From assembly GCA_028534125.1 (NCBI GenBank), contig CM052816.1, positions 7,380,001 to 7,444,000 of the forward strand: 64,000 bases of DNA, in the 5' to 3' direction. The DNA comes from Lama glama (taxonomy: Eukaryota). The notes under the pieces were generated by a model. That model ran no database searches, was not told the DNA's origin, and saw only the letters and a program-made list of their open reading frames with translations. The position numbers were made by a program, and so were the translations under genes. This document shows, in pieces, positions 20,548 through 44,594 of the stretch (the stretch's first letter is position 1; each line of letters opens with the position of its first letter).

Positions 20548-20899
20548 GTCAAACCTCAGAAACACAACATCTTTTTCCCTGTAATTCTAGCAGGAGTCCC
20601 AGGGCCAGCTCTTATTGACCTGACTTGGGTCATGTGATTATCCCTTATTTAACCAGACCCTGTGGCACTGAGTGGCTGGATTACGGTTACATGTCTACTC
20701 CTGGAGCCCAGGACTTGGTTCAGTGCTGCTCAAATCATGTGAAATAAGAGTTGGGGAGGAGTGGTTCCATGAAGGAAAAATCAAAATACTGGTAGTAAAA
20801 TAAAATAAAATAAAAAAAAACAGGGAAGAAAAAAAAAAACAGGGAAGGATGCTAGACAGGCATCTTTTTTGGGGTAATAGAAGCAGTCTATGTCTGTGA

Positions 20900-21265
20900 T
20901 TCTGAAACTGTGTTAAGGCACCTCCAAGGAGCTGCTGCAAGCTCACGGGAGCACTGGGGGATAATTTAAATTTTCAAGGGAAACACAATGACATCTGTCA
21001 CACACCCCTTAAACTACTAACTTGAAGGAGTTCACAGCTGTACATTAGGTTACGCTATGTTCTTTTTAAAGATGTCATATCTTTGTGAAGTTGGATTTTT
21101 GGTGGTCTCTGATTGAAATGAAGAACTAAGTGAAAATTGGTTTGGGACAAGAAATGGGGCAGGCAGGGTCCAGTCTAATCCAAAAGTTTAAGGATTTGTG
21201 CAGGGCCTGACAGGCACTCACATCAGTAGATAATTTCGCTTACTTCAGAATGAAATAAAAATACT
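20900..21265 (+). mobile_element. hAT-Charlie-type DNA transposon fragment
   Basis: Resembles recalled Charlie internal sequence (gaaatggggcaggcagggtccagtctaatccaaaagtttaaggatttgtgcag); subfamily uncertain. Confidence 0.45.
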
Positions 21266-21289
21266 TTTGCCAAAAACAAACAAACAAAC

Positions 21290-21600
21290 AAACAAACAAA
21301 ATAACAAATACATGTATGTATTTGCATGACTGGGACATTGTACCGTACATCAGAAATTGACATATAGTAACTGACTGTACTTAAATTTTTTTTAAAGTTA
21401 AAAATAGAACTACCATATGATCCAGTAATCCTACTGCTGGGTATATATCCTAAGAAAATGAGAACAGAATCTCCTAGAATATCAGCACCCCATGTTCATT
21501 GCTCTTGTAGCATTATTCTCAATAGCTAAGACATGGAAATAACCATAGTATCTGTCAAGGAGGAATAGATGCAGACAATGTGAGATTGAAATTATATATA
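21290..21600 (+). mobile_element. L1 3' fragments
   Basis: Short L1 tail followed by atagaactaccatatgatccag..catggaaataacc. Confidence 0.7.
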
Positions 21601-23838
21601 TGTTGTGTATGTGTAAATTTATATTCACATTTTAACTATGCATTTACACTGCTGTTAAAATTTCAGCTACATCTCAAGAAAAATTGCTCTGATGGTTGTT
21701 GGGTGATTTGGCCAGGTTGTCTCAATGACTGTGAGTTTCACAGATGAAAGGAGAGAAGAAGAAAATAAATATATATTCATCCCTTACTTTTTCCAAGGGC
21801 AACAAGCCCTGATAGTGTTCAAGAGAAAATATATGCCTTCATCAAAATATTAACAGCCATAAATTTGAACAGTCCTGTATCTCCAAGGCAGGTGAGAACA
21901 CACCATCCAACAATTTCATCCAGTTTAAATAATTCTTGACTTTAAGATCTTGAGTCCTACAAAGTTCACCCAAAACAGTACGGGGAAGACACACAGACAA
22001 ATCCTATGATTTTCTTGTACTTTAAGGACATTTTTTTCCTTCATGTTACAATTACTTCATGTTAAAATGAACAAGCATAGAATGTTCTAGAGCTTCTAGA
22101 ACTTTTTTTCCCTTTTAAAAAAATTTCAACAACCTTTTCCATTACTGGCTTAGGTCTGATTTGTAGCAAACTTGGTGAGACACCCTTTGTTTCCAAAAGG
22201 ACAAAATTAGACTCCAGGGTGGTTTACTAAAACAGTTATAACACCAACTTCTTTATGAATGTTGCATTCAAATAAGTGGTTAACTATAAAATAAATACTT
22301 GGGAATCTGGTATGTAAAATGAACAATGGGTTGAGTTCTTAATATTTTCTTTAACTTTATATGGTATTATATTAACAAATCTCATGTATTCTGTTTTTAT
22401 ATGATGAGAACTTGATTCTTTCATACCACATACAAACTTAGAGATACAGAATAAAATATGGGATAAAAAAAATAACCAAATTTCAAATTTGTAGTAGCAA
22501 CATAGTGTTATTATTTCATTTCTTTCTTCAGGTATGCATACATTTTCTGACTCTTTCTAGAATTAAATAATTTTGGAAAATCTATTTAATCTCAGACATC
22601 AAGTCTCAGTATGTTTATATTATGGCTCATGGGGCATAAGCAGACACAATCAAGCTAACATTTGATAAAAATTTTTAAATGACTTCGAGATCAGTAACAA
22701 TCCAGAGGAGAAAGTGACAGGGTATTTTTGAATAATACATGAATACCCCACGAGTGATGTGATTACATCACTTAGCGATAATGGAAAGACAGAATGCAGG
22801 TAAGAGGAGCATGGAAGATACTGAACGCCAGAGAGTGAAGGGAGGATGAGAAATGTAGAGACTGGGGATATACTAATTGTGATCACCAGAATGGAGGTTA
22901 AATTTTAATATCAACTGGGATGTCTGAAGTGGGACACAATTGTGGAGAAAAGTATGCATGATTTCTAACTAAGAGCTAGAACTGAGAGAAAATGTTCCCA
23001 TCTCTACATGTGACAAGAAGAGGGAATGGAAGGGAAGTGTGTGCAATCTAGTCAGAAACTACGGCTGTCTTGCCAAACTGAATGGAAGGGCTGGGCTTCA
23101 AGGCAAAGCAGAGTCTAGTTTCACAAATTTTTGTTTAAGTAGCTGAGAAACTTTAACAAACACACAAAGCAGTAATTAGACGTGTGTCTGTGCTTGGTAT
23201 GAATTAAATGATACGTTCAGTTTTGACCATGTTGAGGCTAACATGACGGTAATACAGTGAGCTGGACTGGATGTCTAAATTAGAGACACAGAAAATTAAG
23301 TGTACTCCTGGACAGGACAGGGAGAACTGATAATGAAAAGGGTCATAGGAAAAGGGAGAGAAACAGGGAAATGTAGAGTAGGTGGAAGCTAAAATTGAGG
23401 AAGCATGAAATGAAAACATGAAGGAGAAATACCACATTCAGTCAGTCAAATAAGGGTAAGAAGTATCAAGAGTGATCTATAGATACATATCAATCTAGAA
23501 ACAGATAAAAACATACAGTTGATATAAGGATATGGATATGACTATAAATCCAAGGTAACTTACAACAGGCTCAGTTTATAACTGTTATCCTGGTAAAATT
23601 ATTAACAATTCTCTGCTGACTCTCAGAAATGTGAAACTTCAGGTGACAAAGTTCCAGCAGATAAAGATCAAGACATACAAATACAGGAAACTAATTTTAT
23701 ATATATCTGTGCATGTGTGTGTGCAAAAATTTCTCTGTGTAGGTAGTAGGTATTCCACATACAGCAATTTTAAAATGTTACATGTATTATTTCCAGGAAT
23801 TGACTCTAAAGTGAACACTGAATCATTCCCTTCTAAAA

Positions 23839-24775
23839 TTACACTTGCTGCAAATGTGCCCTATGACATAACACCCTTCTGACTGCTCCTTTCACCTCTG
23901 TGTTTCTCAGGCTGTAGATCACGGGGTTTAACATTGGAGTAATAACTCCATACAGCATGGAGATGAGTCTGTCTCTTGCCGGGGAGTGCTGGCTGGAGGG
24001 GCGCACATAGGTAAATATTGTCATGCCCCCAAACAGACAGACCACCAGAAGGTGAGACGCGCAGGTGGAAAAGGCTTTACGCTTCCCTTCCACTGACTGC
24101 ATCTTGAGGATGGTAGATATGATGTAGAAGTAAGAGATGAAGGTGACCAGGAAGGCACTGCTCCCCAAGATACCGGCTTCCACCAAAATAAGCATTTCTG
24201 CCACGTAGGTGGATGAGCAGGAGAGGGCCACCACTGGTGGGATGTCACAATAGTACTGGTTAACTCGGTTGGAACTGCAGAAAGAAAGGCGGAATGTGGA
24301 CACTGTATGAATAAGGGAATTGAGAAACCCTGCTGCCCAGGTCCCAGCCGTCAGCTGGACACAGCGAACCTTGGTAATGATGAGGTTGTAAGAAACAGAT
24401 GGCCACATACCGATCATAAGCCATGACAGAGAGAAGGAAGACTTCCGTCCCCACCAGGGCTACAAGAAAATAAAGCTGCAAAGCACACCCAACAAAGGAA
24501 ATGCTGTTCTTCTCAGTCAAGAGGTTCTCCAGCATCTTGGGGACAGTAGTTGATGGGCAGAATATGTCCAAGAGGGATAGATTTGCCAAAAAGTAATACA
24601 TGGGTGTGCGCAGTTTTGTCTCAGTCCCAATGGCCAAGAGAATGGCCCCATTTCCCACCAAGGTAAACTGATAGATGATCGCAAAGACCACAAAGAGAGG
24701 GTAGCGCACCTCAGGGAGGTCAGAGAGCCCTATGAGGACAAACTGAGTCACTGTGGTTTGATTGTAGACGTCCAT
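23839..24775 (-). pseudogene. Olfactory receptor (OR5V1-like by eye) with one frameshift
   Basis: MDVYNQTTVTQFVLIGL..LRTPMYYFLANLS..MAYDRYVAICF / YNLIITK..KAFSTCASHL..PMLNPVIYSLRN. The PLR of the PLRY motif is missing at about 24391 (about 8-nt deletion; total 937 nt). Confidence 0.9.
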
Positions 24776-25021
24776 CTCCTCTGCACATGAGGGCCTATCT
24801 GGAGGGAATGTAACCACAAACACAGGTTAAAGAGCCAAAGAAGCTAGTGATGAGAAATTCTTGTGTAATGCTTCGTGTGTGCTTGATGAGGAATTCTGTT
24901 AAAACTATACTTTAATTAGCGATTTTGATTATTACAACCACTCTTAAAGACATCTCCTGTGTTTGTCATCCTCAAAAGATTCATTCTTAGTTCCTTATCA
25001 AGAGGAATCGCTCTGAGAAAC

Positions 25022-25536
25022 TGTAACAGAAAAGAACAAATCTGATTCCGTATTAGATCTGTTCCTTTGGCTTTAACCCTGGGCCCTGTTTTCTAGGCTT
25101 AGTCTTGCCAGCCCTGCACCTTTTGCAAAAGAATGTTGCCTTCAGCCTAAAGTATACAGGAGGGCCTATTCTCAAGGCTCTGACCTTTAAGGGTATTAAC
25201 ACTTTTGCCCCTGTATAAAGATGACAAGTTGCAGAATAGAAAATAACATTTGTTTGTTAGAGATTTTTCCAGGGGCACCATGACCTGACCCACAGCTGCA
25301 AGAACAAAGGATTCCTACACCAAGAAGTTTGCAACAACCAGCCATACTCCCTCCCCTTTTTAGTATAAAAGGAGCCTGTATTAAGACTTGGGGAAGATGG
25401 TTCTTGAAGACATTAGTCTGCCATCTTCCCAGCCTTCCGGCTTTCCAAATAAAGTCGCATTCCTTACCCCAACACCTTGTCTTCCGATTTACTGGCCTGT
25501 CATACGGTGAGCAGAATGAGTTTGAGATCAGTAACA
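25022..25536 (+). mobile_element. Solo ERV1-type LTR with 4-bp TSD
   Basis: TG..CA termini, TATAAAA, AATAAA, TSD aaac on both sides. Confidence 0.88.
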
Positions 25537-28500
25537 AAACCAAGGCAATGTTTCAAAATCTGTCTTCAATAAAACTTGTGATCCCTTCAAGAATGCTTGA
25601 GATTTCACAATTCAGTGACAGCGGATGGTGTGTTTCTCGTAACTGCTTGGGCAGTTACTTTATTTGGCTCTGTATTACCTCAATGCGTACAGTTTTATTG
25701 CACTATCTCAATTCAAACTATCTTGAAGATAGAATCTGTACATTATCCCTTGATAGCCATACTGGATACCAACACATTGTATGAAAATATTTCACTAAAT
25801 GATTTTTGAATAAAGCAATGAATGTTACTTTACCTGCTCTGACAAAGTGCTTTTATTTACTAGTAGAAATAAATATGGAAATGCTTTCATAAGTTCAAAA
25901 TCATAATTATTTAAATATCAATAAATATGTAGTTTCCAGAAAAAGATACTGTAATAAAAATTAAATTAGCCTATAAAATATAAGTTAAACTTGGTTTGGG
26001 TCTAAATGTGACCCAAACAAGAAACAAATACATTAATATTCATTTTCTTTACTTTTTCAAATGATATATTTCACCATGTGTCTAAGGATATTTCAAGAAA
26101 TATAGGACTTAAAAAATTATGTATGTTTGAACACATTGGTGATACTAACTCTTATTTAATTTTATAATTGCATTTGTGTGTATCTTACTAGTCCACATAA
26201 TCATAGTGTTTATGATAGTTACAAAAATGACTCTAATTCAAGATCTACAAATCAATACCTCTATGGATTTTTTTGGTCACTTTGAAAAGTAACTTTTTTT
26301 TTTTAATATCACATGTGTTATAGCAAAAGATGATTAGAAAATAAAATGCTAAAGTCACTTTCAGTGGTCCCCCTTCCACATTTATTTTGCCTACTGGAAA
26401 TTGTTAATGATTTCTTTACTGAGATAAAATATATTAGTATAAATAATATAATTTATGCACAATGATTTATTTATACACATGAAATGAAATTACTTTCTGT
26501 CACTTTTTGCCCCATGCAATATTGAAATAAGAATCTCTGAGACACCTTGGGAGATATTTTTACTCTTTCTACAAGCAGTGCCAAATCTGTGCCAGATGCT
26601 CAGGAGAAAACCAAACCAAACAGAACAAAACTTTTATCAGTAATACTCAAGTGGTGATATTTAGAAAAGAAAATTACTGTGATAAACACAAAGTGTCTGG
26701 ATAGCATTAGTCACTCAATACAAGATGTTTAATGAGTGAATTAAGAAGATCAAAACAAAAACTTCTACTGTGTCAGCTCTCAAATTCTCAAATTTCCAAG
26801 ATTATATAAAGCTGTTCAGTTTCAGCTCATCTACATCTTATAAACTAATATTTTGAAAATAATGCAGATTTCTGAAATTTTTAAGTGAACTTTCCTTATA
26901 CGAAAAATTAGTAACTTGAGACAGTAAATATTAAGTTTTATATTAAATACGCATTTTCCTTTATACCCACGCTTACTAATTTGACTCATTGATTTTTTTA
27001 GCAAGGATTATGAAAAGTAAGTCAAAAACATCCGACAAACACATAAGGTAGTTCTACATCAGGTTACATAATTAATATGCATTTTTTAAAGCATAATAGA
27101 CTTTCTCTAAATTGTGTAATTTATCACTTAACATTTATTAAATCAAATTCATGGTCTTGGCATACAGAATGCAGAATTTGTATATCTGGGGTGGGAACTT
27201 TTTCTTGTATTAACAAAACCCTCCTTTTAAATCAAATATAATTGAAGCTTAGGTATTTGCCATATAATTAGAAAACTGGGTGCTTTTTCAAATAATGTGT
27301 TGTTAAGGAAGGTCTATAACATTTCTTATTAACCCAAGAGACTGGCAGCACATATTTTAGAGAATCAAAGAAATTCTTACGAAGTACAATCTCTCACCTC
27401 TTTTGTGAAATTAATTGGTGTAAATATAGACATATGTATATATGAGGAATCCTGGTTGAAATCAGTTTTTTGTCATAAAAGGCCAAACACATAATGAGAA
27501 TTGGAATTAGGGATGTGTGGCTTAAGATGAGCCTTCTCTTGGAATTACCCAGAAAACATCTTTTTTATTATTTATATATGACTTACTGTCTTGCACATGG
27601 CAAAACTCAAGTGTACTATACATGAGGCTTTTTCCTTTAGCATATAGTCACTTCAAATTTCCACTATATAGAGAAAAAGAAAATTAGTTAATTAAGTAAG
27701 AAAAATCACTGAGAAATGTTAGATCGTAAGATAATTCAAAAATTATAATTTATTTAGCACAGCAATATCAAAGAAATACTACATTTAAAATTTCTCTTAA
27801 AATCAGAGAAAGTTTTTTGTTAAACAATATTGCTAAAGAAATTCTATAGTCTTGATTTTTAACTCATGAAGTAATAGCCAATAAAATAAATCAAAAAATC
27901 CCTCATTAAGTTTACTATCTGCACCAGCTTTGTGACATCTTTGTTGCCTGTAGGCTTCATGTAGGTTTCCCCAATTTTCTAGAGAATGTACATTCAAAAC
28001 TATGGGTCAGAAACATTGATTTGGATACAGCAGCATTTCCATACAGAGGTTTTGGGTGCACACTTGTGTGGGTATGCACAACTTTTAGGACTGAAATGAA
28101 ACAGTTCAAAGCATTTATACAGACACCCATTCTATCATATTTGAAATTTCTCACCTGATCTTACCCATAAAGCATTCATTTTTAACTCATTTGTTAAATG
28201 CGTACATCTTCTCACCCTATTAACATCGTTACAAACACCCAGTTGTTTACCTTAGCTTAAAAAGTCTAGAATTTAATGTACAACTTTCTAGCCCTTTCAG
28301 TGTCAGATACCAGCATTCACTAAGAAGAAAGTAAAACGCTCCAGCCCCCACAAAAGTCTCGGTAAATAAAAGCAAACTACTCACTACTCACTACTCAAAA
28401 TACACACCTAAAGAAGGTGCTATTTATTCTGTAGTTTATATTATGCCCACTTTTCCCCAGGGGGGAGACCATAATAAGGACTAGAGAGAGAATAAAGCGC

Positions 28501-30569
28501 TCTTCTTCGAAATCCAAACAACTACCATCCGAACAATGGACACCTATGAGTAATAATAGGCACTTATCGTACCGTTAGCCAATTTAATGTAAGTTTAAAA
28601 AAATTGCTAAAATAAGTGGAATGAAAATTTTGCTCTTTGTAATTGCCTAGAGTACCATTAAACAAAATATTCTCCAGTAATTGAATTGCCAGACCAAGAG
28701 GAAGAAAACTGATGTTACAGCATTTTTCCATAATCAGAGTAATGATTCTAGCATGGTGTGATTACACCATGCACTTGTTAAAATTTGCATTTTTCAAGAC
28801 AGATAAACTATTTGTGTGCAGTAAACACATTTTTTTATATGGTTTAAGACTACCCACGTGAAAAGTTGTTACAACCATTTGGACTCAGATTTAGTGGAAT
28901 TTCAAACTTATTTCAACCTGTAACTGCTAACTCAATTTTCCAGAAGAATGTTTTTAATTAAAAATAATTTAGATCTACAAATTTCAAAAATGTATGTGTA
29001 TATAGAATGATATATATGTTTAGTAAATCCAGGTGAAGGGAATATAGATGTTCATTATGCCATTTCAATTCTTCTGTAACGTACATTTTCAAAATAAAAC
29101 GTTGGAGAAAAATCAAGCAGAAACAGAAAAATGACACAGGGAAAATTCAGTGCAATTCACTGATGCCCACATGCCTACTCAACCATTCTATTATTGTGAA
29201 AAGAGCAATTATTATTTAACTCTATATTGTGCGGGGGTTTGGGGTTTGTGTATTTGCTTGTTTGGGAAATATTCTATTCCTACTTCCCCAGAAAAATTGG
29301 CTATCTGGGCTGCTTCTCTGCTTTTTTCATTTTTTAAATATGTTACTGAAATTTTGGAAGATCTGTAATATCTTTTTAGATCTTTACATGGTTCCTGTTG
29401 TAGTTTATGAAATAGGTTTTACCTTCAGTTGCTTTATATGTTACCCTGACATTTTAGGGCTTCAGACAATAGGGATGAATACCCTATTACCTACACATTT
29501 CTTCTCAAATCCTTTTTTTCTCTCCTTTCCTGGAAGTTGGCTGATCATATATTTGGAAATCATGATACTTTGAATCAAAAAATGCCTCTCAAAAGTAGTG
29601 CTTAAGAAAAATTAAGTTTTTATCCTTTTTCCACGCTAGTCCGCTGCATCTCCCTCCAACCATTCTATCAGGGATCCTGACACTCGGAGAGGAAGAAGGA
29701 AACGTAAAGTGATTTGAGCTTAGAAAACCTTTCCTGAAAGCAGTTCTACAAAATTCCAGTTACTCTATATTTGAAAGAGTTCAGTTATCTGACTACCCTG
29801 GAGATGCCAGGGAGTCCTGGATACACTGTTTTCATCTGAGGCAGCGCTTTGAAAAGCAATCAGAAATTTCAAGGACTGAATATATTCTAAGTTCTTATTT
29901 AGTTTAATTATAGATATATACATATCTTTCCAAAGTAATTTTATATACATATCTCTAAACTGTGTATGTTCATACCGAGGTGAAGTATTTGACAACTATC
30001 AGGTTTACATAACATTCCAACCTCCAGAAACTTTCATCTGTTACTCTGGTAAATTATGACTTGCTCACAAATATTTTTTCTCCTTCTTAAGATAGGAGTA
30101 GGGGTGGAAAGATAGAACTCCCCATCTATATGTCATCAACAAACATGTCTTCTGAACGAATGGTTCTCATTTTCAGCCTTCCTTTTAGCTAGATGGAACA
30201 ATCTGATGAAATTCAGGTTAATGAGTATTATCAAATTTGGTGTTTGTATGATCCATGTCATAGTTATAAAATAATAGGTAATTTACCTCTAAACTCCTAT
30301 TCTTAACACCCTTAATGTTTCTATATTATACCACTGTAATTTAAAATTTTAATGTTCATAAATATTTCTTTAACTTTCATTATTAATTCATATTAACATT
30401 CACATATGGACATGCTCTTCTGTATTTCTCTCCCCAAGCAGGATGCATTACAGCTATAATTTCTGTTCATTATCATTATTTCCTTTATCATTATTATTAA
30501 AATTCCTATTAAAATAAAAATCCATAAAAAGAGCATATAAACAAAATGTAAATCTTTTCCTCAATATTT

Positions 30570-31780
30570 TAAATTACGCATTTTAATTAACATTACAGTA
30601 AAATTGACTCATTTTTTGCTATACTATTCTATGAATTTTATCACTTGTGTAGATTCCTGTAATTAACCACTACAATCAGAATACAAAACAGTTCCCCCGA
30701 CCCTCAAGCCCTCTGATACTCCTTTGTAGTTACACTGACTCCATCCATAACTCCTGGCAGCTATCTGTCTACTCATCACTGTAGTTTTGCTATTTGGAGT
30801 ATGTCACATACATAAAATCAACAGTATGTAACCTTTTGAGACTGCTTCCTTCACTCAGCACAATTCTTTTGGAACAAGTGATTACACATACCTGCAGTTC
30901 ATTTTTATTGCTAAGTAGTATTTCATTTTATGATGTATCACAGGTGGTTTGTCCAATCCTCACTTAAGGACATGTGGACTGTGTCCTGATTCTGGTGATT
31001 ATGGAGAGAGTAGCTGTAAGTTTTCACATACAGGTTTTCCTGTAAATGGAAGTTTTAACTTCTCTCAAATACCTAGGAGTGTGGTATCTTGTGATATCAT
31101 ATGATTAATGTATCTTTAACTGTATAATAAACTGAATTTTTCAGAGTGGTCATACTATATTACACATTACCATCCAATGCGTGAGACTTCCAATTGTCAT
31201 ATGCCCTTATCATCCTTTGGCATTATTCCTATATTGTATTTTAATAATGGTTTCTCGTGTTACTTCAAATTTGCATTTTCATAGTGGCTACTGATTTTGA
31301 ATATGTTCATGTACTTATTTGTCATTTCTTTACCCTCTTAATGAAGTGTCTATTAATTGCTTATTTTCTACCTCTTTAAGTATTGAGCGATTTTTATGTA
31401 TTCTCAGTGCATGTCCATTGTCAGAATGTCCTTTGCAAATACTTCCTTCCAGTGTATCTTTTACCTCCATTCTGTTATCATTGGTTTTCGCAGAGATTTA
31501 TTTACAGTTTGTTTGCTCTTATTAAAATTCTGTCTAGAGCAGTTTTGAGTTCACAGGAAAACGGAGGGGAACATACAAAGACTTCCTGTATACTTCCTAC
31601 CTCCAATATCAACATGTATAGCTTTCCCATCACCAACGTTCCTAATGACAGTGGTACAGGGGCTGCAATGTTGTTTTGCCAACAACAAATGAGTTCCTTG
31701 CAAGCACTTGGTGTTATCAGTGTTTTGGCTTTGGTCTTTCCACTAGGTGTGTAGTGGGATCTCAATGTGGGGTTTTTTTG
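30570..31780 (-). mobile_element. Old LINE-1 (L1M) fragments
   Basis: Typical L1M 3'UTR and ORF2-end motifs on the minus strand. Confidence 0.7.
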
Positions 31781-31816
31781 TATATATATGTATTTTTTAT
31801 TGAAGTCTAGTCAGTT

Positions 31817-32232
31817 TGTAATAGAAAAGAACAAATCGGATTCTGTATTAGATCTATTCCTTTAGCTTTAACCACTGTGCCCTGTCTTCTAGACTTAATA
31901 TTGCTAGCGCCGCACTCACGTAAAGATAACAAGTTGCAGAATAGAGAATAACGTTTGTTTTGTTGGAGGGTTACAGGGGCACCATGACCTGGCCCATGTG
32001 GACAGCTGCAGGAACAAAGAATTCCTACCAAGAAGTTTGCAACAACCAATCACACCCCCTTCCCTTTTTTAATTAAAAAAGAGCCTTAATTCTGACTTGG
32101 GTAAGATGCTTCTCCAAGATATTAGCTGGCCATCCTGCCGGCTTCCTGAATAAAGTCACTATTTCTTGCCCCTCGTCTCCCGATTTATTAGCCTGTCGTC
32201 CTGCGAGCAGAATGAGTTTGGACTCAGCAACG
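31817..32232 (+). mobile_element. LTR of the same family, internally deleted, without TSD
   Basis: Aligns by eye to the 25022 LTR. Left flank agtt, right flank (g)cttt. Confidence 0.85.
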
Positions 32233-33732
32233 CTTTTAGATTTGGGAACCCATGTGAATGTGTTACCTGTTTATAATTCAGTAAATACATTTTTATCGAA
32301 ATGCTCCTTTGCCGGAACCCAGTCAATTCTGTTAAATCAATTACAGCATCACAATAGCCTCTCCATCATCTGTTCTCACCTCCAACACATATCCTGTCAC
32401 CACCACTGTCCCCACTCTGCAATTACCCTGGGAAGAAGTAGGATGCTTTTTAAAAATTACATATTCTTTATGTTTTAGAACCAAACTTTCTAATTATCAA
32501 TTTATAGTCATAAATCCTTATAAATGCAAACTGCTTTCAAACATATGGTCTAATTAGGTCATTACAACACACCTGTGACAGTTTATTTGTTTTTAGCCCC
32601 ATTTTATAGAAAAGTGAAGCTGTAAGAAACTAAGGGCCTTGCCCAAGGTCACTCCTCTGGAAATGACAGGGCAAATCTCCATCGTCTGAAGAACAGCTGA
32701 CATTCCTTCTGATGCCGCTTGGAGGTCGGCAGCTTCCACACCATCCTTCCCGTCTCCAAAAAGGGAAAAAAGGAAAGATGACAGGAGGCCTTTGACGGAT
32801 TTTATTTCCATCCCCTGACATTCCAAGACAGACTGATGTAAGCGTGGTTCAGTCTGGGTCTTGGTCCTGGGGGGGGACAGTCCTGGCAGAGAGAGGAAAA
32901 TAGCCAACTGGAAGGAAGGAAAACGTTCCTGGCTGGTGTGGAGAGGTCCCTGCCAGTAAACGGGACGGATGCTCCAACTTGCCACAGACATGCCCCAAGG
33001 TCCCATTAACACCATGGTGCTGAACCAGAAAGACGCTGCACACTTAGGTAACACTGCCGACTTCCTGGCAACTTTCAAAAGCAAGACTGTTTCTACTGAC
33101 AGAGGTGTGGGTGGGACGTTTGAGGATGGAACTGAGAATGGGAGGGAGGGTTTGGCAGCTGAAGATGGAGTTGCAGGGCGCCCTGGGTGTGCTTCTCAAA
33201 AAGTTTCCCTATGTAAGATTTTCCTCCGGTTCCATTTCTTAACCTCCTGACCGACTCTAGAGTCCCAGATTCACGTGATGCTAGCCATGAAAAGAATGAG
33301 ATGCGCCCTTCACAACTGTTGCCTGGAGCCATGGTGGAAGCCGACTGGGGGCTCAGAACAGTAGCAGCAATAGTCGAAAGGACAGCTTGTAACCAGAATT
33401 TCTCATCATCTAAGTACGGTACATAATACAAGAAAGCCGTGTAACATGCAACATCCAAGGCCATTCATAATGGTCTCCAACATGTGTTCTGATTACCAGA
33501 AGTCTGTCACCACGCCTCCTAGCGGAATAAGGTGACATGGATAGCTCCTCTGATCTCTTCTGATACATCACCCAGGAAAAACACAGACTGCTTCTGATGC
33601 AACATGACGTATTTATCCCAGGCAGGAGAGAAAATTGGATGCTCAACCATCACACAGAAAAGGCTGAGAATTTTTATTTTTTTTTCCCTGAAGAAAGAAA
33701 TAAGTAATTGTCAATAGCTCTTTTGACAGCTT

Positions 33733-33762
33733 CAATTCACAATTCACAATTCACAATTCACA
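33733..33762. repeat. (AATTCAC)4 heptamer tandem repeat
   Basis: Seen directly. Confidence 0.9.
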
Positions 33763-35274
33763 ACTACTTTCATGACTCCAGAGGTTGTAAAAAGCATCAT
33801 AAAATGTAACAGCTTAAATTTACCAGAAAGCCAACTTTGTTTAGTCTCACCCTAAATTCTCAGATGAACTTGCAAATTTCACTTAGCTCTGATGTGGTAC
33901 CTTCCCAAGAGGCCAGGAGATAAAGATAGAAGGAGCCAAGTGTGAGGTCCATCAGCTCCAACACCTAAATTCGGCTCCATGGCAGCTCAGCCAAATGGAA
34001 GAGCTCATTTTCTTCCTCCCAAAGCTTCTGATTCTTAGAGCAATGCAGCACGCCCACCCTCTGTTATCGAAGAGACCCAGGTGATGAAAGGGAAAAGGAA
34101 TTCTCCCCTAGATTAACATTGGACCACCAGAAATAGGACCATCTTCGCACTGAAACAGTTCTCCATGGCCACATTGTTCTATTTCCTTCTAATGACGGAA
34201 GATCTAATTCCAGGGAAATGCTAATAGCTTCATTATGTGGCCACAGGGCTAATCAATTACATAGCTAAAGAGTTTGGGGACTGAGCTATGAGGTATTTTT
34301 GGAACAACATCTGACCCCTTGATATAAATCTATTGTTACCAAGTGTAAGTAAAACTCACCAATTGGAGAATCAAAGGACAAGACTAAAGATTTCATGTGG
34401 AATATGGTCGCGTCTGACTCAGGCTCACTCTTGGTAAGTCCAGTTCAGTGTGGAGTGGGTGCTGGTACAGCCTAAAAGGGTGAAAAAAACGCAGGTGCTT
34501 GGAACCATGTTGGGAGCAAAACATAGGACAGGTGCTCAGAAAATTCTGGCAACCCATGGAGGAGGGGTCAGAAGAGTCTAGGAGTCTCTGTCAGGAGGGT
34601 AGCCCTACAGAAGGAACCCTTGGTGATGTCAGGCAAGTAAGGATCAACAGTTCTCCTTAGTTGGACGCACCCGCCCACGATGAGAAGTTTCTGTGCAAAG
34701 AATATGAAGAGAGTCACCAGGTGTCAGAGAGGTTCGCAAGAACAAGGCCACTATGCTAAGCCACCCACAGGGCAAGAGACGGACACTTCCCGTGAGGCCA
34801 TCACGGATGGGCGGAAAGAAGCCACCTGACATGTGCAAGTTGGTTCATGAGCCCATAAAGGAAGTCCCTGTCCCAGGAGACACCCACATCCCTACATCAG
34901 AACTCTCTCCAGCGGTCTGCCACGTCATCCTAAAAACATCTCAGATGGAGACTGGGAGCCGTGGGGCCCCCGCCTCACCTGACCTGGTCCCATCATCATC
35001 CCAGCTCAGTTGTGGCAATGCCACTCCTTTGGCAAAGTGACGGTCTTCAAAATGTCCCTGCAACTCTGGCATCTACCCCAGATTGGAAGATCCCTTTTAC
35101 ATTTTCATGCGCAAAATTATCCTGACCCTTATGTTCCACAATTACGTTGCTCATCCTATAACTCTATGTCTTAGCAATTATACGTAAGAATCATAGAAGT
35201 GTTCGATTTAACAATTACTTCATTTCCTTGAGGACTTTTTCCTTCCTCTTAGAAAATTCCTTAGATCGTTAGAC

Positions 35275-35277
<3 letters not shown>

Positions 35278-35315
<38 letters not shown>

Positions 35316-35345
35316 GTAATAATAGTAATGATAATAATAATGGTA
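35278..35345. repeat. (AAT)n microsatellite
   Basis: Seen directly. Confidence 0.95.
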
Positions 35346-35751
35346 GTAGTCACCGTGCCTCGCAGGTACCGAGTGCTTACTCTGTCCGGCACTATGCTAA
35401 AGGCTTTACACATTTACGTTTCCTACATCATTAAATCACATCACATCAGCCCTGCAGCATAGGTGCCATTATTGTTTCCATTTTACAGAAGAGGACACTG
35501 AGGCACAGTGTGCCAACTTTCATCCCATCTTGTTCCCTCACTTTGTGAGGAGCCACGCCAAAGAGTCAAACCTCAGGAACCCAAAGTTTATGAGCAGCGT
35601 TTGTTTACTGCTGGGAGCGAGGGGGCTGAGGGGAGGATGAGACCAGTCTGGGCTTTTGGGAACAGTCTCTTGACTTCCTAAGTCACAAAATTCACACAAG
35701 AGGTAGCTACTCTATTATTTTCCTGTGGCACAGGGAACAGCCAGCTTTTAC

Positions 35752-35925
35752 CTTACTATCTTCCTGGATCTCCCAGTCACTGGAGAAACTCACCAGTTGC
35801 TGCCCTCGGGAAAGCTGGAAAACTGGAAAAGGCTGGAGAGCATCCTTCTGTTCCCCTGAGTGTCGGGAAAGACGGCATCTTGGAAAATGACTCCATGAGG
35901 CTAGAGGTTATCCTTTTCATCCATC
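35752..35925 (-). pseudogene. CCDC3: CCDC3 unprocessed pseudogene, second coding exon
   Basis: cattag|G MDEKDNL*PHGVIFQDAVFPDTQGNRRMLSSLFQFS../GQQLVSFSSDWEIQEDSK|gtaaaa vs human MDENYNLLPHGVNFQDAIFPDTQENRRMFSSLFQFS..GQQLATFSSDWEIQEDSR. Confidence 0.93.
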
Positions 35926-36452
35926 CTAATGGAAAAGCGGGGGAAGCAGAGCTGTAGACTGGACAGCCATGGGGAGGACCATCTTGAATCAAGTCAGAGA
36001 AGACTGTGACAGTGTTGCCAGGTACACAACACTGTCTCCCACAGAGGACTCTCAGCAGAGGAGCTATTTCTAATGGTTTCTCGGCCTCATGCTGCATGAG
36101 TCCATCCTTAAGGTTTTCAAAACCCCCTCTAAGGATAGCCCAGGAGATCACCTACCCCTGGCCCTGTGGCCAGCAGACGGCTCAGTCTGGCTTGAACACC
36201 CTTCCCCAGAAACCCTCTTCTGTCCACCAAGCACAGGAATCATCCTTGTTTCCCCAAGTCTTAGCCAGAGGTACTCAGGCTCTTTGCACAGACTTCAGGA
36301 GAAGCAGGAAGGAATAAACAGTACAAGGGAAGGGGCCCACGGCATATTTGAACATTTCAGGGACAGGAGTCCCTGGTTCCGAATAAAGGTGCCCTCGATT
36401 TGTCACGCAAGTGGGCCGAGGGGGTGCTGTGGGTGGATGGCGGCGGGCTCAA

Positions 36453-36830
36453 CTGAGGAAAAAAGAATAGGAGTAATCGTGAACCACGGTGTGGTGTGAG
36501 AGTGACATGAAAAGTAGCCCAGGCTGGTGAGGTTGGGCCTGGAGCCCACGGGCACCTGGAGCATGATGCCCCCACGCCTGGTCTCAGAGCATTTCCATCT
36601 CTGCCAAGTAGAGAGCCCGCCTTCCTGGCCTCATACTGCCAGGACAGGCAGTTGCACAGGCCTGGCACCTCGTGGTGCAGCGCCAGCACCTTGGGGTACC
36701 TGATCGTCCCGGCCAGCTCGGCGCGGCAGCCCCTTGCTCAGGGGTCTGGACTCGGAGGGCTGCTGGCAGCCTCGCGCGGTCCAAGCCAGCCGGGTAGGCA
36801 GCGCGCGGAGAGCAGCAGCGGGCGAAACTG
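36453..36830 (-). pseudogene. CCDC3: CCDC3 unprocessed pseudogene, first coding exon
   Basis: CQQPSESRPLSKG/CRAELAGTIRYPKVLALHHEVPGL..AEMEML*DQAWG/MLQVPVGSRPNLTSLGYFSCHSH/TVVHDYSYSFFL vs human CQLPSEWRPLSEGCRAELAETIVYARVLALHPEAPGL..AEVEMLCDQAWGSMLEVPAGSRLNLTGLGYFSCHSHTVVQDYSYFFFLR. ATG lost, about 5 indels, TGA at 36584-36586, donor GT>TT. Confidence 0.92.
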
Positions 36831-37290
36831 CTCCCGCTCAGCGGGAGCGGGACGGGGAGGCGGGTGCGCCGCGCCCGGGGCGCACTAGGCAGGGGCGCAT
36901 GGCGGGAAGCCCGGGAGCAGGGGCGCCCGCGGCGGGGAGCCCTGAGCGCCCGGCCCACGGCGCCGCCCTGCGGGCCCCGGAAGCGCAGCTCTGGGCTCTG
37001 GGCTCCGGGCTCCGCGCGCCCCTCTCTCCGAAGCCGGGCTCACCCAGCCGGCCCGCGCCCCGGACACTTCAAAAGGGGCGCGGGGCGCGCCGGCTGCTGC
37101 CTCCTGCTGCCCCCCACGGGGGGCGTGCGCAGAGGCGGCAGGGGCAGAAGTGGGGAGCCGGCCAGGGGCGCGCGAGGTTCAGGCTCGCTAGACGCGCAGC
37201 GCTGGATGCTTGGGGGGGTCCTGGGGGATGGGGGGTGGCGGCTCCGCGGAAAGTCAGTGCCGGGAGCGTGGCCCCGCCTGCCCTACTGGG
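36690..37290. promoter_or_regulatory. CpG island (promoter region of the CCDC3 copy)
   Basis: Very GC- and CpG-dense ~600 bp over and upstream of the CCDC3 start. The only such island in the window. Confidence 0.8.
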
Positions 37291-37985
37291 TCAAACCTTT
37301 TCAGGCTTAAAGCCTGCTCCAGACGCAGCATCCTAAAAAGATCGCAGTCAATGGCCGTGATGACTCTAGCTACGCTTTTGTATTTTCTATGAAGTTCATT
37401 TAAAGTCAAATACATAGACATTTGACTTTGCAGAGGTTAACTAGGAAATTCAGAGTCTTCTAATAAAGTTTTCTAGATTGTCCATCTGCTTATAATAATG
37501 GTCTTAGGAAAGCCTTAATAAAAGATTTGAAAAGCCAAAGCCATAGTGCTCCAATTTTCCTACATCTACGTGATTTCATGATTTACATAATTTTAACTTC
37601 CAGATTTGGAAGATTTTACATCTGAGGAACAAAATAGGAAGCAAATTCCAAACAGCTTTCCACAAGTGAGCAAGCGAAACTGACCAGACTCAAACTGCAG
37701 TTTTACCTTTATCTCTAAACTCAGCAGTTCCCTTTCCCTCCAAATTTCCTTAACTGCTACTAGTGTAGTAAGAAGAAAAAAAAGGATTTTTAAATAAATA
37801 TGTATACTATCTTATGTATTCATACATCACACGTGTACATAATATCATGCATGTAATATACATATCATCAAGGAGGTTACCCCTTATGTTTCCTTCCAAA
37901 AGTTTTATTCTTTCAGGTCTTACGTACAAGTATTTAATCCATTTTGAGTTGATTTTAGTGTATGGTGTAATTTCCAGTGTCATTC

Positions 37986-38504
37986 TGTTACCAACTCCAA
38001 ACTCATTCTGCCCACCACACAACAGGCCAATAAATCGGGAGAGGAGGTGTTGGGGCAAGGACTAATGACTTTATTCGAAAAGCCGGCAGACCAAGAGGAT
38101 GGCAGACCAATGTCTTGGAGAACCATCCTCAAATCAGAATTCAGGCTCCGTAAACACTAAAAAGTGGAGGGGATGTGGTTGGTTGGTGCAAACTTCTTGC
38201 TGTAGGAATTCTTTGTTCTTATAGCTATCCTCCTAGGTCAGGTCATGGTGGCCCCTGTAAAACCTCTAACAAAACATGTTATTTTCTATTCTGCAACTTG
38301 TTATCTTTATATGAGTGCAAAAGTGTTAATATCCTTAAAGGTCAGAGCCTTGAGAATAGGCTCTCCTGTCAATTTCCGGCTAAAGGGAACATTGTTTTAC
38401 AAAAGGTGCAGAGCCAGCAAGACTAAGCCTAGAAAACAGGGCACAGGGTTAAAGCCAAAGCAACAGATCTCATATGGAGTCAAGATCTGTTCTTTTCTAT
38501 TACA
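37986..38504 (-). mobile_element. Solo LTR of the same family inserted in an L1 fragment
   Basis: Reverse complement of the 25022 LTR, TSD attc on both sides. L1 sequence continues across it (about 37870-38560). Confidence 0.88.
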
Positions 38505-38654
38505 ATTCTTTTGCGTGCAGCCGTCCGTTTTACCCAGCACATTTGTTGAGGGGACTATCACCAGCATTCATTGGCTTCAGAACCTCACCTCCCATCATCA
38601 CAAAATCTCTCTTCATCTTATTAAAGAATGAATTCAGGAATCAAAATTGGCAAG

Positions 38655-38850
38655 ATTTTTTTTCACAAGTTCTTAAACTGTGGCAAGATACACATAACAG
38701 AAAATTTATCACCTTAACCACTTTTAAGCGTGCAGATCACTGACGTCAACTTTCACATTGTTGTGGGGCCATCATCACCATCCAACCCTGGAACTCTGTT
38801 CATCTTGCAAAACTGAAACTCTGTACCCATTAAACACTAAATCCCATTTC
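38655..38850 (-). mobile_element. L1MB-like 3' end
   Basis: cacataacagaaaatttatcaccttaaccacttttaag..aactgaaactctgtacccattaaac. Confidence 0.75.
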
Positions 38851-40489
38851 CTCTACTTACAACTCATTGGGCTTTGGCCTGAGCAACTGGAGAGACTGTG
38901 GTCCCCTCTCTTCTCCTGTACTTATTACTGCTGTTCATCTTTTGATGGCATTTCCCTTGACTTGACCAAACTGTCCTTCAATGCTTATTTTAACCCCATG
39001 TTATAAATATTGCTAGTTGGGCTCAGACATGGTGGTTTACTTGGGACAGCCACCTACATACAACCCACGGTGATTTTTAGTTTCAGAATTTTCCTAATGC
39101 CTACTGCAGGGTGCTGGTGTTTCTCATCCCCTAGTGGCTGATGTTTAGGGTTACCTAAAGTGAGCATCTAATCCCTAAATTCACTCCAAAAGTCATGATT
39201 TCCACGGCTATGACTGCAAAAAAGACAAAGGAAATTTAAAATATTAAGGGGTTTACTGTCCCTATTATCATTTGTTTAAGAACTTTCAGGTTGCAAAGTG
39301 CTTTTTTTTTTTTAACCATACATTGTCACATTGCCTCACCTCCACAAACCGTCTAAGGTAGTTATTTTCATGCTATTTTTCAGAAATGAGGAAAGTGAGT
39401 CTGAAAGAGAAAGTAACTTGACGAAAGTCACGCAAATGGTCCAGTCTCTGTCCCCGCTCATCCCCAAAAAGGGAGATGTTGAAGTTGCAGGAAATCCGAA
39501 ATGACTACCATCGTTACTTCCTTGAAAAATAATAATTCCAAATAAACTAACTGACTGAGCTTTGGTTACAATTTTAATTTGGTTGAGGGAGGTTCAAGCC
39601 TAAACTTCTCATCTCCATCTTACTTATTTGGTTATTTGAAAGACTGCCATCTTGAAAACTTACTTAAATATTCTCATTTCTTCTTATATTGTTTCATTCT
39701 CTTACCATAACTTGATAGTTAGCTTCCTCTTCATTCCTGTGCATAAATTTAACTGCTTGTCAGCCGTAGAAAACTGATGTTCCTTTTCCTCTTAAATGGT
39801 CCTAGTGCCTATCAGATCCTCTCCAGCTTCCCTGCATCTTTCTGCATCTGTGGCACAGAAATACACAACTGTACCATGTACTGAAGTGGTAAAAATCTCA
39901 CTCTGCCCTTGTTTCTCATCAGATTTTCCTCCAGCCCCCTTCTCTTTATAATTGGCCCCCTTTCAGCTCTCAGGGCCTCAGCACAAATGGTTACTTTAGG
40001 GACAAATTGAAATTATAGGAAATATTTTGTGTTTATCCCTCATCCTCCCTCGACTGTCTTTTTAATATTGATCAACGTAGCATAAGGAGTTTTTCTGGGG
40101 TTTCCTCCTCATGAGCTGGACCCTGGGGTCCATCCTGGGGCTCTGTCTGCGGCAGCTCCCAAGCCATGAGTCTCCTTTGTCTTTCACGGGAACTGATGGT
40201 GCACTTGGGGGAGGGGAGGAATGAGCAGATGTGAGCAGCTATCTTCAGGTTGTAGGGGAGAGAAAATGTTCCATTTTCAGATCCCAGAGTCCTTCCATCT
40301 AGCCAAGGGTGACCCTGCTTTCAGGACAGCCACATTCCAAACGCCAGGTGATGCGTGGAAATCAAGAGACTTGTGGAAAGAGGGGGTTCTCACCCATCAT
40401 TAGCTGTGTGAGAGTCTGTGTTGAAGAGAAGGGCCTTGGATCTTTGTAAAATCCTGTGGAAATCTTCTGACCCCTTTCACACTGAGTCT

Positions 40490-40995
40490 TTTTTTTTTAA
40501 TTGAAGTTTAGTTGATAGACAATATGATAGTTTTAGGTGTACAGCAAAGTGATTCAATTATACATATATTATATATATGTTCTTTTGCATTATAGGTTAT
40601 TAAAGATGTTAAATATATTTCCCTGTGCTCTACAGTAGGTCCTTGTGATTTATCTGTTTTATATATAGTAGTGTGCATCTGCCAATCCCAAACTCCTAAT
40701 TTATCCCTTCCCCCTCTTCCCCTTTGGTAACCATAAGTTTGTTTTCTATATCTGTAAGTCTGTTTCATTAATCAGTTTATTCGTATCATTTTTTTAAAGA
40801 TTCCACATATAAGTGATATCATATGATTTTGTCTTTCTCTCACTTACTTCACTTAGTATGATAATCTCTAGATCCATCCTTGTTGCTGCAAATGGCATTA
40901 TTTCATCTTTTTTAGGGCTGCATATTATTCCATTGTGTATATATACCACATCTTCTTTATCCAGTCATCTGTCAGTGGACATTCAGGCTGCTTTT
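40490..40995 (-). mobile_element. LINE-1 3'UTR (artiodactyl type)
   Basis: Poly-T start, ctttggtaaccataagtttg, gattccacatataagtgatatc. Confidence 0.85.
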
Positions 40996-42199
40996 TAAGT
41001 TATCACAAGTCTCAGTCCTACTGACGTCTCTGGAGTGCTGTGTGTTTTCAGTTCAGTTTCTTCATGAGCTGTCACTGAGTCTCCAGAGTTCAAGAAGAGA
41101 ATGACTCCTCTTCACACTCATCCCTCCACCTGCTTCTCTCCCACTGCTCATCCTTCCCTTCCTCACAGAATACCTTCTCTGCATTAATTTTTTTTTCCTG
41201 TCTTCAAAGTCTCTTTAACATGGATTCTCTTGTTGCCAAAAAGTATTTTGGTACATCTACCCACAAATCCCTGCATCATGTTGTAACCATACACTTGGCC
41301 ATTTCACATGATAACCTCTGTAGATAACTGACCTGCACAGACAGCTTGGTATCCCCTCCCCCTCCCCCCAAGTGTGGGCTGAAACCCTACCGGGAATTTA
41401 AATTTGTGACTTTTAAATTTGTGAGCTGCCCATTCTTCTCTCCCCCCTGGTTCTTTGCTGATAAGCTCTTCCTTCCCCTGTAATAGAAGCTTTGGAGGCA
41501 GGAACAAAAGTAGCTTCCTGTTCTGCCTCAACTGTTTACTATGCTTAATTAATTCATCTATGGTGATTTCTATCTTTATTGGCCAGGATTACATTCATAT
41601 TCAAAAACTTAGTTTTCAGCGATGGTTTTATAGTCTAAAGTATTTACCAGAGTAGGTCTGGCTTTGATGACCAACTCCACAGAAAAGACTGCTATTTACC
41701 ACCTTTCAGTCACTCAAGAAGCAACACAGGTGGTGGTGGAGGATTGTGACCGCTTGGGCATAAAAGGCAATTGGTTTCCCACTGTGGAAATGAAAAGGCA
41801 GATCTGGCACCATCGGTGTCTGTGATGCCAAGGTATGTGTGACAAACAAAAAGAGAACAATGGAAGGTTAAGTTTCAAAACATAATAAAAGCATAGGATC
41901 TAGTATACAAAAAATGACCATGCTTTTGGGGACTTCCTTCACCTGATGTGAAGTAAAGATGAAAGAAGGGATTGGCCAGCATGTCCAGAGTTTCTGGTTT
42001 TGCTGTTGTATGGCTCTCATACACGTTATATGTGGGAAAGATCTCAAAATGCCTTCCCCAATGAGTCCAGTCTTCTGGAAATTTTCTTCACTGTGAGAAC
42101 CAAACACAGTCAGTTGGCATCTGGAAGTTAGGTAAATGCCACTTTAACCTTCAGGAAGCATCAAGAATTAGCAAACTGTGGGAACCCACTCTCCCTCTT

Positions 42200-42720
42200 C
42201 TCCAACTGCATTGGCCAGATTCTTTGGTTGTTAAGTATGGAAAGCCCAATGAAAAACTGGCTAAAGGAACATGGGAAGGAGTTTATTCACCAACAAGTGA
42301 AAGTCCCAAAGAGAGCAAGCTTCGGACTCTGGCTGGATTCAGGGGCACAGATCACTCTCTCCATCTCTTAGTTCCACTCTGCTCTGTTTTGACTCCATTT
42401 TTAGGTTCTTACCTCATGGTGGCAAGATGGCTGCCAGAGATCACCATCTTTTATCCTCTCCTCTCATTAATCCCAGTTGGAAAAGTCCATCTCTCTCTCT
42501 CTCAAGGGTTTCAAATTCTAAAGAAGTCCTGAGAATTGAGTCTGATTTGGACTGACTGGATCATGGTCCCCGCTCTGAACTGTGGCTAGAGAAGAGGGCT
42601 TTCGTGTTGATATCGGCCACACCTGGATCTCGTGTCTACCACTGGAGCCAGGCCTAAATCACCTGGACCAAGAGGAAAGTGAGGGTGGGTGTTTTAGGAA
42701 GCCATCAGTTGCGTTACCAA
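42200..42720 (+). mobile_element. Old MLT1 LTR
   Basis: ctcatggtggcaagatggctgcc..tgatttggactgactggatcatgg. Confidence 0.6.
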
Positions 42721-43244
42721 AAGGAGAGAGCCTGGATCTCCTACAGGTGAAACAATGAATGTCCACTGGATCAAGTTACAGCCACAGCTGCCTTGATGGA
42801 GAAGCTGGTTTGTTCTAAGGCATGCAGCTTTTTCTACAGCTTCTGGAACTGACTGCACTGAACTCACCCAATTGAGATCCCTCCCACTGCTCTCCTGGAC
42901 AGCTGTGCCCATTGCTGTAAGTTTGTAACTCATGTTATCACTTCTCACTTACACAAGCTTAAAAAAAAAAAAAAAAAAAAAGAAAGCTAGACCATAATTT
43001 TTGGTGTATGGGTGTGAGTGCCTGGGGACAGAGGTTAAAAGAATTGACTTCATAGTTCAAGGTTAGATTTACTTTAGGAATCACATTCAAGATTCTGTCA
43101 GCCCTGGGCCTCAGGGAGGAGGGTGAAAGGGAAGGACCGGGAAGGACCTTCTCTGAGAGGAAGCCCCCTGCCCTGTGTTTCTGGTCTTGAGATGGCTGGC
43201 TGGGGTGGGGTCTCTGCCCCACAGCTCTCGCCCTCCCACCCTCA

Positions 43245-43744
43245 NNNNNNNNNNNNNNNNNNNNNNNNNNNNNNNNNNNNNNNNNNNNNNNNNNNNNNNN
43301 NNNNNNNNNNNNNNNNNNNNNNNNNNNNNNNNNNNNNNNNNNNNNNNNNNNNNNNNNNNNNNNNNNNNNNNNNNNNNNNNNNNNNNNNNNNNNNNNNNNN
43401 NNNNNNNNNNNNNNNNNNNNNNNNNNNNNNNNNNNNNNNNNNNNNNNNNNNNNNNNNNNNNNNNNNNNNNNNNNNNNNNNNNNNNNNNNNNNNNNNNNNN
43501 NNNNNNNNNNNNNNNNNNNNNNNNNNNNNNNNNNNNNNNNNNNNNNNNNNNNNNNNNNNNNNNNNNNNNNNNNNNNNNNNNNNNNNNNNNNNNNNNNNNN
43601 NNNNNNNNNNNNNNNNNNNNNNNNNNNNNNNNNNNNNNNNNNNNNNNNNNNNNNNNNNNNNNNNNNNNNNNNNNNNNNNNNNNNNNNNNNNNNNNNNNNN
43701 NNNNNNNNNNNNNNNNNNNNNNNNNNNNNNNNNNNNNNNNNNNN
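43245..43744. other. Assembly gap (500 N)
   Basis: N run. Confidence 1.
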
Positions 43745-44278
43745 TGGACAGAGGGAATTCTAAAGATTGTAATGATAATGTACGTGTAAGACAGTCCTGT
43801 CAGGAGCAAGGAACCCAGTACCAACACAGCAGAGGAGACAAAGTCAGCCAGTTCAGCCAGAGAGATATCCGCACAGACCAGCTTTAGCACAGGGGCACTG
43901 TCACAGAAAAAGTGATTGATTACATTTGGCCCACAAAAGGGCAGAGGAGCACTTAATATTGCTGATGCCAAAATTGACAAAAATGCACCTCCGTAAGATC
44001 CCAGAAGCAATGATACGCATGTTTTCTTGTTCATGATGATGGTATACCTTAGTGGGTTGCAGATGGCAACGTACCGATCGAAGGACATGACAGCCAAGAG
44101 GAAGAATTCTGTGGATCCCAAGAGAAAGTAGAAGAAAGACTGTGCAAGGCACCCCATGAAGGATATTGCTTTGGTGAGAGAAAGTGTGTTGGCCAGCATC
44201 TTAGGCACCACTGTGGACGTAATGGCAACCTGGAGAAAAGAAAGATTGGATACAAAGAAATACATGGGTGAATGCAGT
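43745..44278 (-). pseudogene. C-terminal part (TM2 onward, running into the gap) of the same split OR, family-6-like
   Basis: LHSPMYFFVSNLS..MSFDRYVAICNPLRY..NHFFCD..SYTYIIITIFRIPSV with no stop or frameshift. Its 5' side abuts MER20 sequence rather than TM1. Confidence 0.92.
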
Positions 44279-44371
44279 GCAATTAGTGCTTGGAAGCCAG
44301 GGACACAGTTAAACATCCTGCAATGCACAGGGCACCCTGAATGTCAGTAGTGCCAAAGCTGAAAAACCATG
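44279..44371 (+). mobile_element. MER20 (hAT-Charlie), right half
   Basis: GCAATTAGTG..GCCAGGGACACAGTTAAACATCCTGCAATGCACAGG..AATGTCAGTAGTGCCAAAGCTGAAAAACCATG matches the MER20 3' part, resuming within about 10 nt of where the left half stops. Followed by TSD ctctacag (44372-44379). Confidence 0.85.
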
Positions 44372-44590: not shown

Positions 44591-44594
44591 TATC

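Follow-up and report, generated by a model that had tools for sequence, protein, structure and literature searches.

A solo LTR between a LINE tail and a CCDC3 duplicate in Lama glama as a probable scar of recombination between LTRs

A complete solo long terminal repeat (LTR) of 416 bp, located at 31817-32232 (+) in a 64,000-nucleotide stretch of Lama glama DNA (hereafter the window), separates two sequences of different origin, each of which reaches the edge of the LTR. To the left lies the start of the antisense tail of a long interspersed nuclear element (LINE), and to the right lies intron 2 of a disabled partial duplicate of the gene CCDC3. The flanks thus come from two different insertion sites and are not decayed copies of one target, because one is a LINE tail, the other is a CCDC3 intron, and the tail never resumes. 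We infer that unequal homologous recombination between two LTRs produced the join and that DNA was deleted in the process; that is, the LTR is probably a recombinant solo LTR and a chromosomal deletion scar.

The initial annotation of the window had placed an LTR within 31780-32260 and had taken it as a candidate closure point of a circle excised by LTR-LTR recombination. The recombination is retained here as the best reading of a true seam between unrelated DNAs, short of proof, and the circle premise is corrected: the window is ordinary chromosomal DNA. In an own-genome search, which covered the 2.35 Gb assembly of 1,072,352 contigs, the window proved to be an internal slice (C1:7380001-7444000) of a 102-Mb scaffold (102,007,837 bases). 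Three 500-N gaps interrupt it (1565-2064, 20048-20547, 43245-43744), and the LTR sits inside a gap-free contig of 22.7 kb, with the second and third of these gaps about 11 kb away on either side.

The LTR and its target sites

The LTR starts with TGTAAT and ends with GCAACG, and it carries an AATAAA at 32149-32154. Its final base is G where the other copies have A (family end GTAACA). It lacks a 91-bp block that is present in both sister LTRs of the window, and it has two private deletions of 8 bp and 6 bp. The family has TG...CA termini and a 4-base duplication, and by the usual rule on 4-base target duplications it would be class I-like. At least 4277 candidates of the family were returned genome-wide; among the best 40, which were scored, the 39 non-self matches were 78-82% identical to the LTR, and none exceeded 82%.

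The two sister LTRs, both with the 91-bp block, have the perfect 4-bp target-site duplications (TSDs) that had been reported for them. The copy at 25022-25536 (+) is bounded by AAAC/AAAC, and that at 37986-38504 (-) by ATTC at 37982-37985 and 38505-38508. Three LTRs of one family therefore lie within 13.5 kb (25022-38504). The absence of a TSD from the LTR at 31817-32232 was likewise confirmed. Its left 4-mer, AGTT (31813-31816), is the LINE tail's own sequence, and its right 4-mer, CTTT (32233-32236), is ancestral CCDC3 intron-2 sequence, the homologous point on contig C32 reading TATACTTTTAGATTT. AGTT agrees at 2/4 positions with CTTT and equally with GCTT, the right 4-mer that results when the LTR is taken to have lost its final base.

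The flanks of 27 other copies (7 loci of the first search and 20 further chromosomal matches) were inspected by eye. Eleven had a perfect duplication, 10 matched at 3/4 positions and 4 at 2/4, and two were ambiguous, one lying in a microsatellite and one having an altered 5' end. The remaining 12 of the 39 non-self matches stood outside this count, nine being on unplaced contigs and three chromosomal (C33, C24, C10). With the two sisters included, perfect duplications were found in 13 of 29 copies, and 3/4 in 10. Since 21 of the 27 copies and both sisters keep three or four of the bases, insertion with a 4-base duplication is the rule in this family. A changed terminal dinucleotide was seen in three of the 27. 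The missing TSD is by itself weak evidence and decides nothing, because four of the 27 copies reach 2/4, as do unrelated 4-mers by chance about a quarter of the time at 2/4 or better; its significance rests on the homologies of the flanks. These flanks also bear on the simplest account, an ordinary solo LTR whose duplication merely decayed. Four other copies do match at 2/4 as this one does, but the LINE tail is not resumed on the right of the LTR and the right flank agrees with the CCDC3 paralogs all the way to the LTR, which makes that account exceedingly improbable.

The two flanks

On the left, 31695-31785 (-) is an antisense fragment of an older, L1-type LINE that ends at a site consisting of GTGG and a T-run. 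It is a high-copy repeat, with 242 candidates at about 80-85% identity over 70 bases. A sense-strand LINE at 55008-57679 (+) of the window, with RVT_1 across three open frames at 55301-56056, served as the ruler for LINE coordinates. Within the fragment, 31707-31768 matches window 12004-12066, which maps through the inverted repeat I9 to about 57114-57176 of the sense LINE.

The next 31 bases, 31786-31816 (-), consist of a T-run, then a brief TA-rich part and then ATTGAAGTCTAGTCAGTT; they are the start of a younger LINE's antisense 3' tail, which is cut off by the LTR. At three other loci of the genome (L027-L029) the same motif starts after unrelated DNA and then goes on as TACAATGTTGTG / TACAATGTTGTGTCAATTTC; at a fourth (L030) it is preceded by the older LINE sequence that also precedes it in the window. 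The motif ending in CAGTT is common to all four, and TACAATG follows it there. The continuation at L029 matches the 3' region of the window's reverse transcriptase-bearing LINE (57606-57679, 89%), a homology which identifies the motif as an antisense LINE 3' tail. In a BLAST search for the continuation of the tail, other LINE tails of the window matched, and nothing between 32233 and 40600 did. The left flank had been described as the start of an antisense L1 tail that does not resume on the right, and this description holds.

The older LINE of the left flank offers a separate observation. At L030 (C37:52101900-52103500) and at window 31770-31790, independent LINE tails occupy the same GTGG and T-run site, which suggests that this site is a preferred LINE insertion target. 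Given the biology of L1, a younger tail at such a place would presumably fit target-primed insertion at a T-rich site.

On the right, 32233-37863 (-) is homologous to C32:16528726-16537062, with 78% identity (range 74-84%). In this block, exon 1 (about 36455-36827) and exon 2 (about 35745-35936) are separated by a short intron 1; about 1 kb of promoter precedes them, and 3.5 kb of intron 2 follows. The exons, which the initial annotation had assigned to CCDC3, were identified with a named CCDC3 protein by tblastn; the gene name comes from such comparisons, as the exons, even the intact ones, have no Pfam match. An intact CCDC3 gene lies at C32:16.53 Mb, where exon 1 is 96-98% identical to named CCDC3 proteins (E 4e-77). 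Both exons of the window copy carry in-frame stops and frame changes, and the same exons on C32 are intact by tblastn. Exon 3 was absent from C32:16504000-16553999.

Since the window copy keeps its promoter and its intron 1, together with 3.5 kb of intron 2, it is a DNA-level duplicate, i.e., a non-processed pseudogene. A processed pseudogene (retrocopy) was considered and rejected, as intron 1, part of intron 2 and the upstream DNA are all colinear with C32. Intron 1 is about 2.8 kb on C32 (16532707-16535490) and about 0.5 kb in the window (35937-36454), and about 2.5 kb of C32 (16532937-16535430) is without a counterpart in the window. Furthermore, the N-terminal domain of CCDC3 (L024:1492-1866, C32 exon 1) was nearest to agrin NtA and NTR/TIMP clusters in a protein-atlas feature search (scores 0.89-0.90), a proximity that is a lead only.

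The right flank has homology in five places, namely C32 from 16528726 on and the unplaced contigs C112486, C160659, C180079 and C391070, and in each the homology begins at 32233-32237. At the junction C32 reads ACTTTTAGATTT and the window (G)CTTTTAGATTT; in a wider view, C32 reads CATTTTATACTTTTAGATTT and the window CAGCAACGCTTTTAGATTT. None of the five paralogs has an LTR at the junction point, and all run on leftward, over no less than 1.5 kb wherever the contig is long enough. The CTTTTAG of the window is therefore ancestral, being intron sequence that reaches the very border of the LTR. An AGTT duplicate could have become the observed right-hand bases only by three adjacent substitutions that also restored the bases of the paralogs. 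The possibility that the LTR is the 5' LTR of a provirus whose interior forms the right flank was rejected, the paralogs of that flank being LTR-less CCDC3 intron.

The four unplaced contigs belong to a family of CCDC3 intron-2/5' sequences with more than 30 further contigs of 200-700 bases. Its members are 88-100% identical to one another and about 76-83% identical to C32, and the family may represent a recently amplified or collapsed region.

Beyond its far edge the CCDC3 copy is followed by 16 bases (37864-37879) assignable neither to it nor to the LINE, and then by an antisense LINE fragment at 37880-37985 (-), of which 37885-37966 matches window 56743-56662 (in reverse) and 16370-16452. 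This fragment shares the orientation of the one at 31695-31785, with which it is colinear, and lies about 370 bases further 5' on the LINE ruler; at another locus (L017) both pieces are colinear, 1165 bases apart. On C32, the DNA beyond the homolog of 37863 runs into sequence absent from the window, and no LTR is found there.

The search for a donor locus, which had been expected to show two bracketing LTRs or a single reciprocal hybrid LTR, had a divided outcome. The donor of the right side is CCDC3 at C32:16.53 Mb; the bracketing LTRs are absent, both at the junction (from C32 and the four unplaced paralogs) and at the right boundary, which could be read on C32 only. Colinearity of both sides of the LTR with the donor, the finding named in advance as speaking against recombination, was not seen, as the DNA to the left is not colinear with the C32 CCDC3 locus. 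A reciprocal product was sought with the CCDC3 intron part beyond the junction as the query. Among the best 40 of 87 candidates there was no reciprocal hybrid LTR and nothing on C1, only C32 and unplaced small contigs.

The circle itself has next to no probability. An LTR without a TSD between unrelated DNAs would look alike locally if it were the closure point of an excised circle, but the window is internal to its scaffold, C32 as donor has no bracketing LTRs, and the neighbouring block at 38565-43104 derives from C32:2.32 Mb, which points to a chromosomal mosaic and not to one excised segment.

Formation and age of the junction

In the sequence of events that we favour, a 5' fragment of CCDC3 would first have arrived near or inside the older LINE. 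One LTR of the family would have inserted 31 bases into the LINE tail, at the target AGTT, and a second, in the same orientation, in intron 2 of the nearby CCDC3 duplicate, at the target CTTT. Unequal recombination between the two would then have deleted what remained of the LINE tail side together with the exon 3-ward part of CCDC3, so that a single LTR stayed behind, bordered on the left by the flank of the first insertion and on the right by that of the second. If a circle formed in this way, it would be the excised by-product, now lost. Three features agree with these steps. Both ends of the LTR are kept to the base, bar the final G, at a seam between two sources, as expected from a crossover inside LTRs. 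The local density of the family, with three LTRs in 13.5 kb, makes a nearby recombination partner plausible. The LINE pieces on either side of the CCDC3 block, colinear and about 370 bases apart, fit events confined to a few kb. Finally, a deletion between two LTRs needs no lost donor.

Several points weigh against recombination between LTRs. A 2/4 match of the flanking 4-mers also occurs in 4 of 27 ordinary-looking copies (about 15%). No signal of a hybrid (mosaic) LTR emerged when its identity to 9 copies was compared in four segments: there was no switch of nearest relative, and all were alike. The final base of the LTR is altered exactly at the junction, which would be more natural under a non-homologous join. 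Lastly, the shares of words found in public runs, given below, are no proof of contiguity across the junctions.

Such a non-homologous join, in which an LTR inserted normally in the LINE tail and a later duplication-insertion or deletion formed by end-joining had its break at the last base of that LTR, is unlikely. It would account for the G in place of A exactly at the seam, the other edge of the block (37864-37879), with its 16 extra bases, looks end-joined, and the surrounding DNA is itself a patchwork of duplicated blocks whose breakpoints fall in repeats. However, a chance break within one base of the LTR end would be expected at roughly 1 in hundreds to thousands, and the CTTT of the right flank is left as a mere coincidence.

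We consider it quite unlikely, and slightly less likely than an end-joined break, that the junction is a repair copy. Here, a break by an LTR in a LINE of the olfactory-receptor cluster would have been repaired off an LTR in a CCDC3 copy elsewhere, with 5.6 kb of its downstream flank copied and the far end attached to the same LINE by end-joining. In agreement with this, one LINE is seen on both sides, short of only about 370 bases, the far junction has an end-joined look, and the LTR and the CCDC3 copy have similar branch lengths. The donor, though, must have carried an LTR at CTTT, and C32 and the four unplaced copies that reach the site are without one; since an LTR insertion cannot be removed precisely, such a donor would have been lost or left out of the assembly. 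If it were true, dispersed solo LTRs could seed the duplicative transfer of gene fragments between chromosomes. A variant in which a circle formed by LTR recombination was re-inserted is still less likely.

The same final anatomy could result from one insertion instead of two if the ends of a single provirus had joined two host sites, the DNA between them had been deleted, and recombination within the element had followed. The junction sequences of the LTR, the paralogs and the LINE tail do not tell this aberrant integration apart from recombination between two LTRs. It is nevertheless very unlikely, given the normal duplication (3-4 of 4 bases) in 21 of 27 copies and both sisters and the need for a CCDC3 copy already close by. 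Aberrant two-site retroviral integrations are rare.

An assembly chimera joined through the LTR receives a slightly lower rating than an aberrant integration. The assembly is fragmented (1,072,352 contigs), 500-N gaps lie 11 kb off on each side, and the gap edges are matched by near-identical unplaced or remote sequences. Against this, no scored copy is more than 82% identical to the LTR, which leaves no path for repeat collapse. No orphan partner flank was found among the best 40 of 87 candidates, and all five of the small contigs that were tested fell into the unplaced family (88-100%). In addition, of 148 sampled words from the 1.5 kb at 31300-32800, which includes both LTR junctions, 81-92% were present in 19 public runs from 7 studies under 5 organism labels.

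Deletion by recombination between LTRs would be an old event. On 1659 gap-free columns, the distances were 0.191 between the window copy of CCDC3 and C32, 0.244 between the window copy and the unplaced family, and 0.265 between C32 and the unplaced family, which assigns about 0.085 substitutions per site to the branch of the window copy. The identity of the LTR to 7 relatives is about 85%, that of the relatives among themselves is about 88%, and the LTR stands about 0.10 from the family root. The duplication and the LTR insertions are both old and close in age, and the same must then hold for the recombination. Assuming a typical mammalian neutral rate, the CCDC3 copy and the LTR would date back tens of millions of years.

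Neighbourhood and comparison with known systems

The composition shift that had been noted at the LTR is present. GC rises from 0.34 at 30001-32000 to 0.44-0.55 at 32001-38000, and the shift to the right of the LTR is due to the CpG-rich block at 36500-37499 (GC 0.60-0.72, CpG observed/expected 0.69-0.82). The description of the AT-rich side as olfactory-receptor-type DNA is borne out by an olfactory-receptor pseudogene at 23839-24826 (-), split over two frames, with Pfam 7tm_4 matches of E 1.7e-23 and 1.5e-20. For the left side as a whole (20548-31816), no long paralog was found in the own-genome search.

Past the sister LTR at 37986-38504, the bases 38509-38564 (-), read directly, are the presumed continuation of the LINE fragment at 37880-37985; they look like L1 sequence and have no BLAST match to the LINE copies of the window. 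There follows a second duplicated block, at least 38565-43104, paralogous (82%) to C32:2323024-2327685, which sits 14 Mb from CCDC3 on the same contig. Its left edge adjoins the 162-base LINE remnant and is another homology breakpoint, the upstream C32 DNA being unrelated. No Pfam matches were found in the block. The region as a whole is pieced together from old duplicated blocks, a mosaic set in LINE-rich olfactory-receptor DNA.

Further from the LTR, window 20549-21273, just inside a gap edge, is 96-97% identical to C34:15620462-15621194, and 43745-44277, at another gap edge, is 96-97% identical to the unplaced C174880; these near-identical sequences may be recent duplicates or reflect scaffolding issues. 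An Rfam tRNA match of 39.9 bits at 12630-12701 (+) overlaps a repeat that is also present in L029, and it is therefore probably a tRNA-derived short interspersed nuclear element and not a tRNA gene. A Pfam scan of 101 open frames at 32.6-47.9 kb and 60.9-64 kb gave nothing useful. The own-genome search with 43745-54000 returned mostly LINE copies and no further information.

Taken as an example, the window documents a dead 5' fragment of CCDC3 with a CpG-rich promoter in an olfactory-receptor region, for which no functional consequence was seen. It adds to the cases in which such a region has been shaped into a mosaic of duplicated blocks by dispersed retroviral LTRs and LINEs. As a point of method, the comparison of each flank with independent source copies can reveal an LTR as a rearrangement seam. 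No account of a CCDC3 pseudogene or segmental duplication was found in the literature searched, and we make no claim about what is in print.

Solo LTRs without a TSD are ascribed in one report to unequal recombination between elements (PMC4668562). Like a recombinant solo LTR of this kind, the LTR of the window is complete, has non-matching flanks from different sites and would have lost the intervening DNA. The window case differs in being a mammalian LTR of endogenous retrovirus type, presumably tens of millions of years old; its parents are gone, and a hybrid signal is absent among the 9 copies compared.

Ordinary formation of a solo LTR within one provirus also leaves a single LTR and keeps both original junctions and the duplication (PMC6298018), whereas the two junctions of the window LTR belong to different sites.

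Recurrent translocation between HERV-H elements (PMC3292815) is alike in that dispersed copies of one family serve as substrates for non-allelic homologous recombination. That translocation is recent and both its products are observable, whereas the window has one old junction that is most simply a local deletion.

Another parallel is provided by duplicated pseudogenes that arise through segmental duplication (PMC2978362). The CCDC3 copy resembles them in keeping its promoter and introns while being disabled, and it differs in that it comprises the 5' part only and has one edge set by an LTR. Seen beside these systems, the LTR seam of the window is an ordinary case of a known kind of rearrangement scar.

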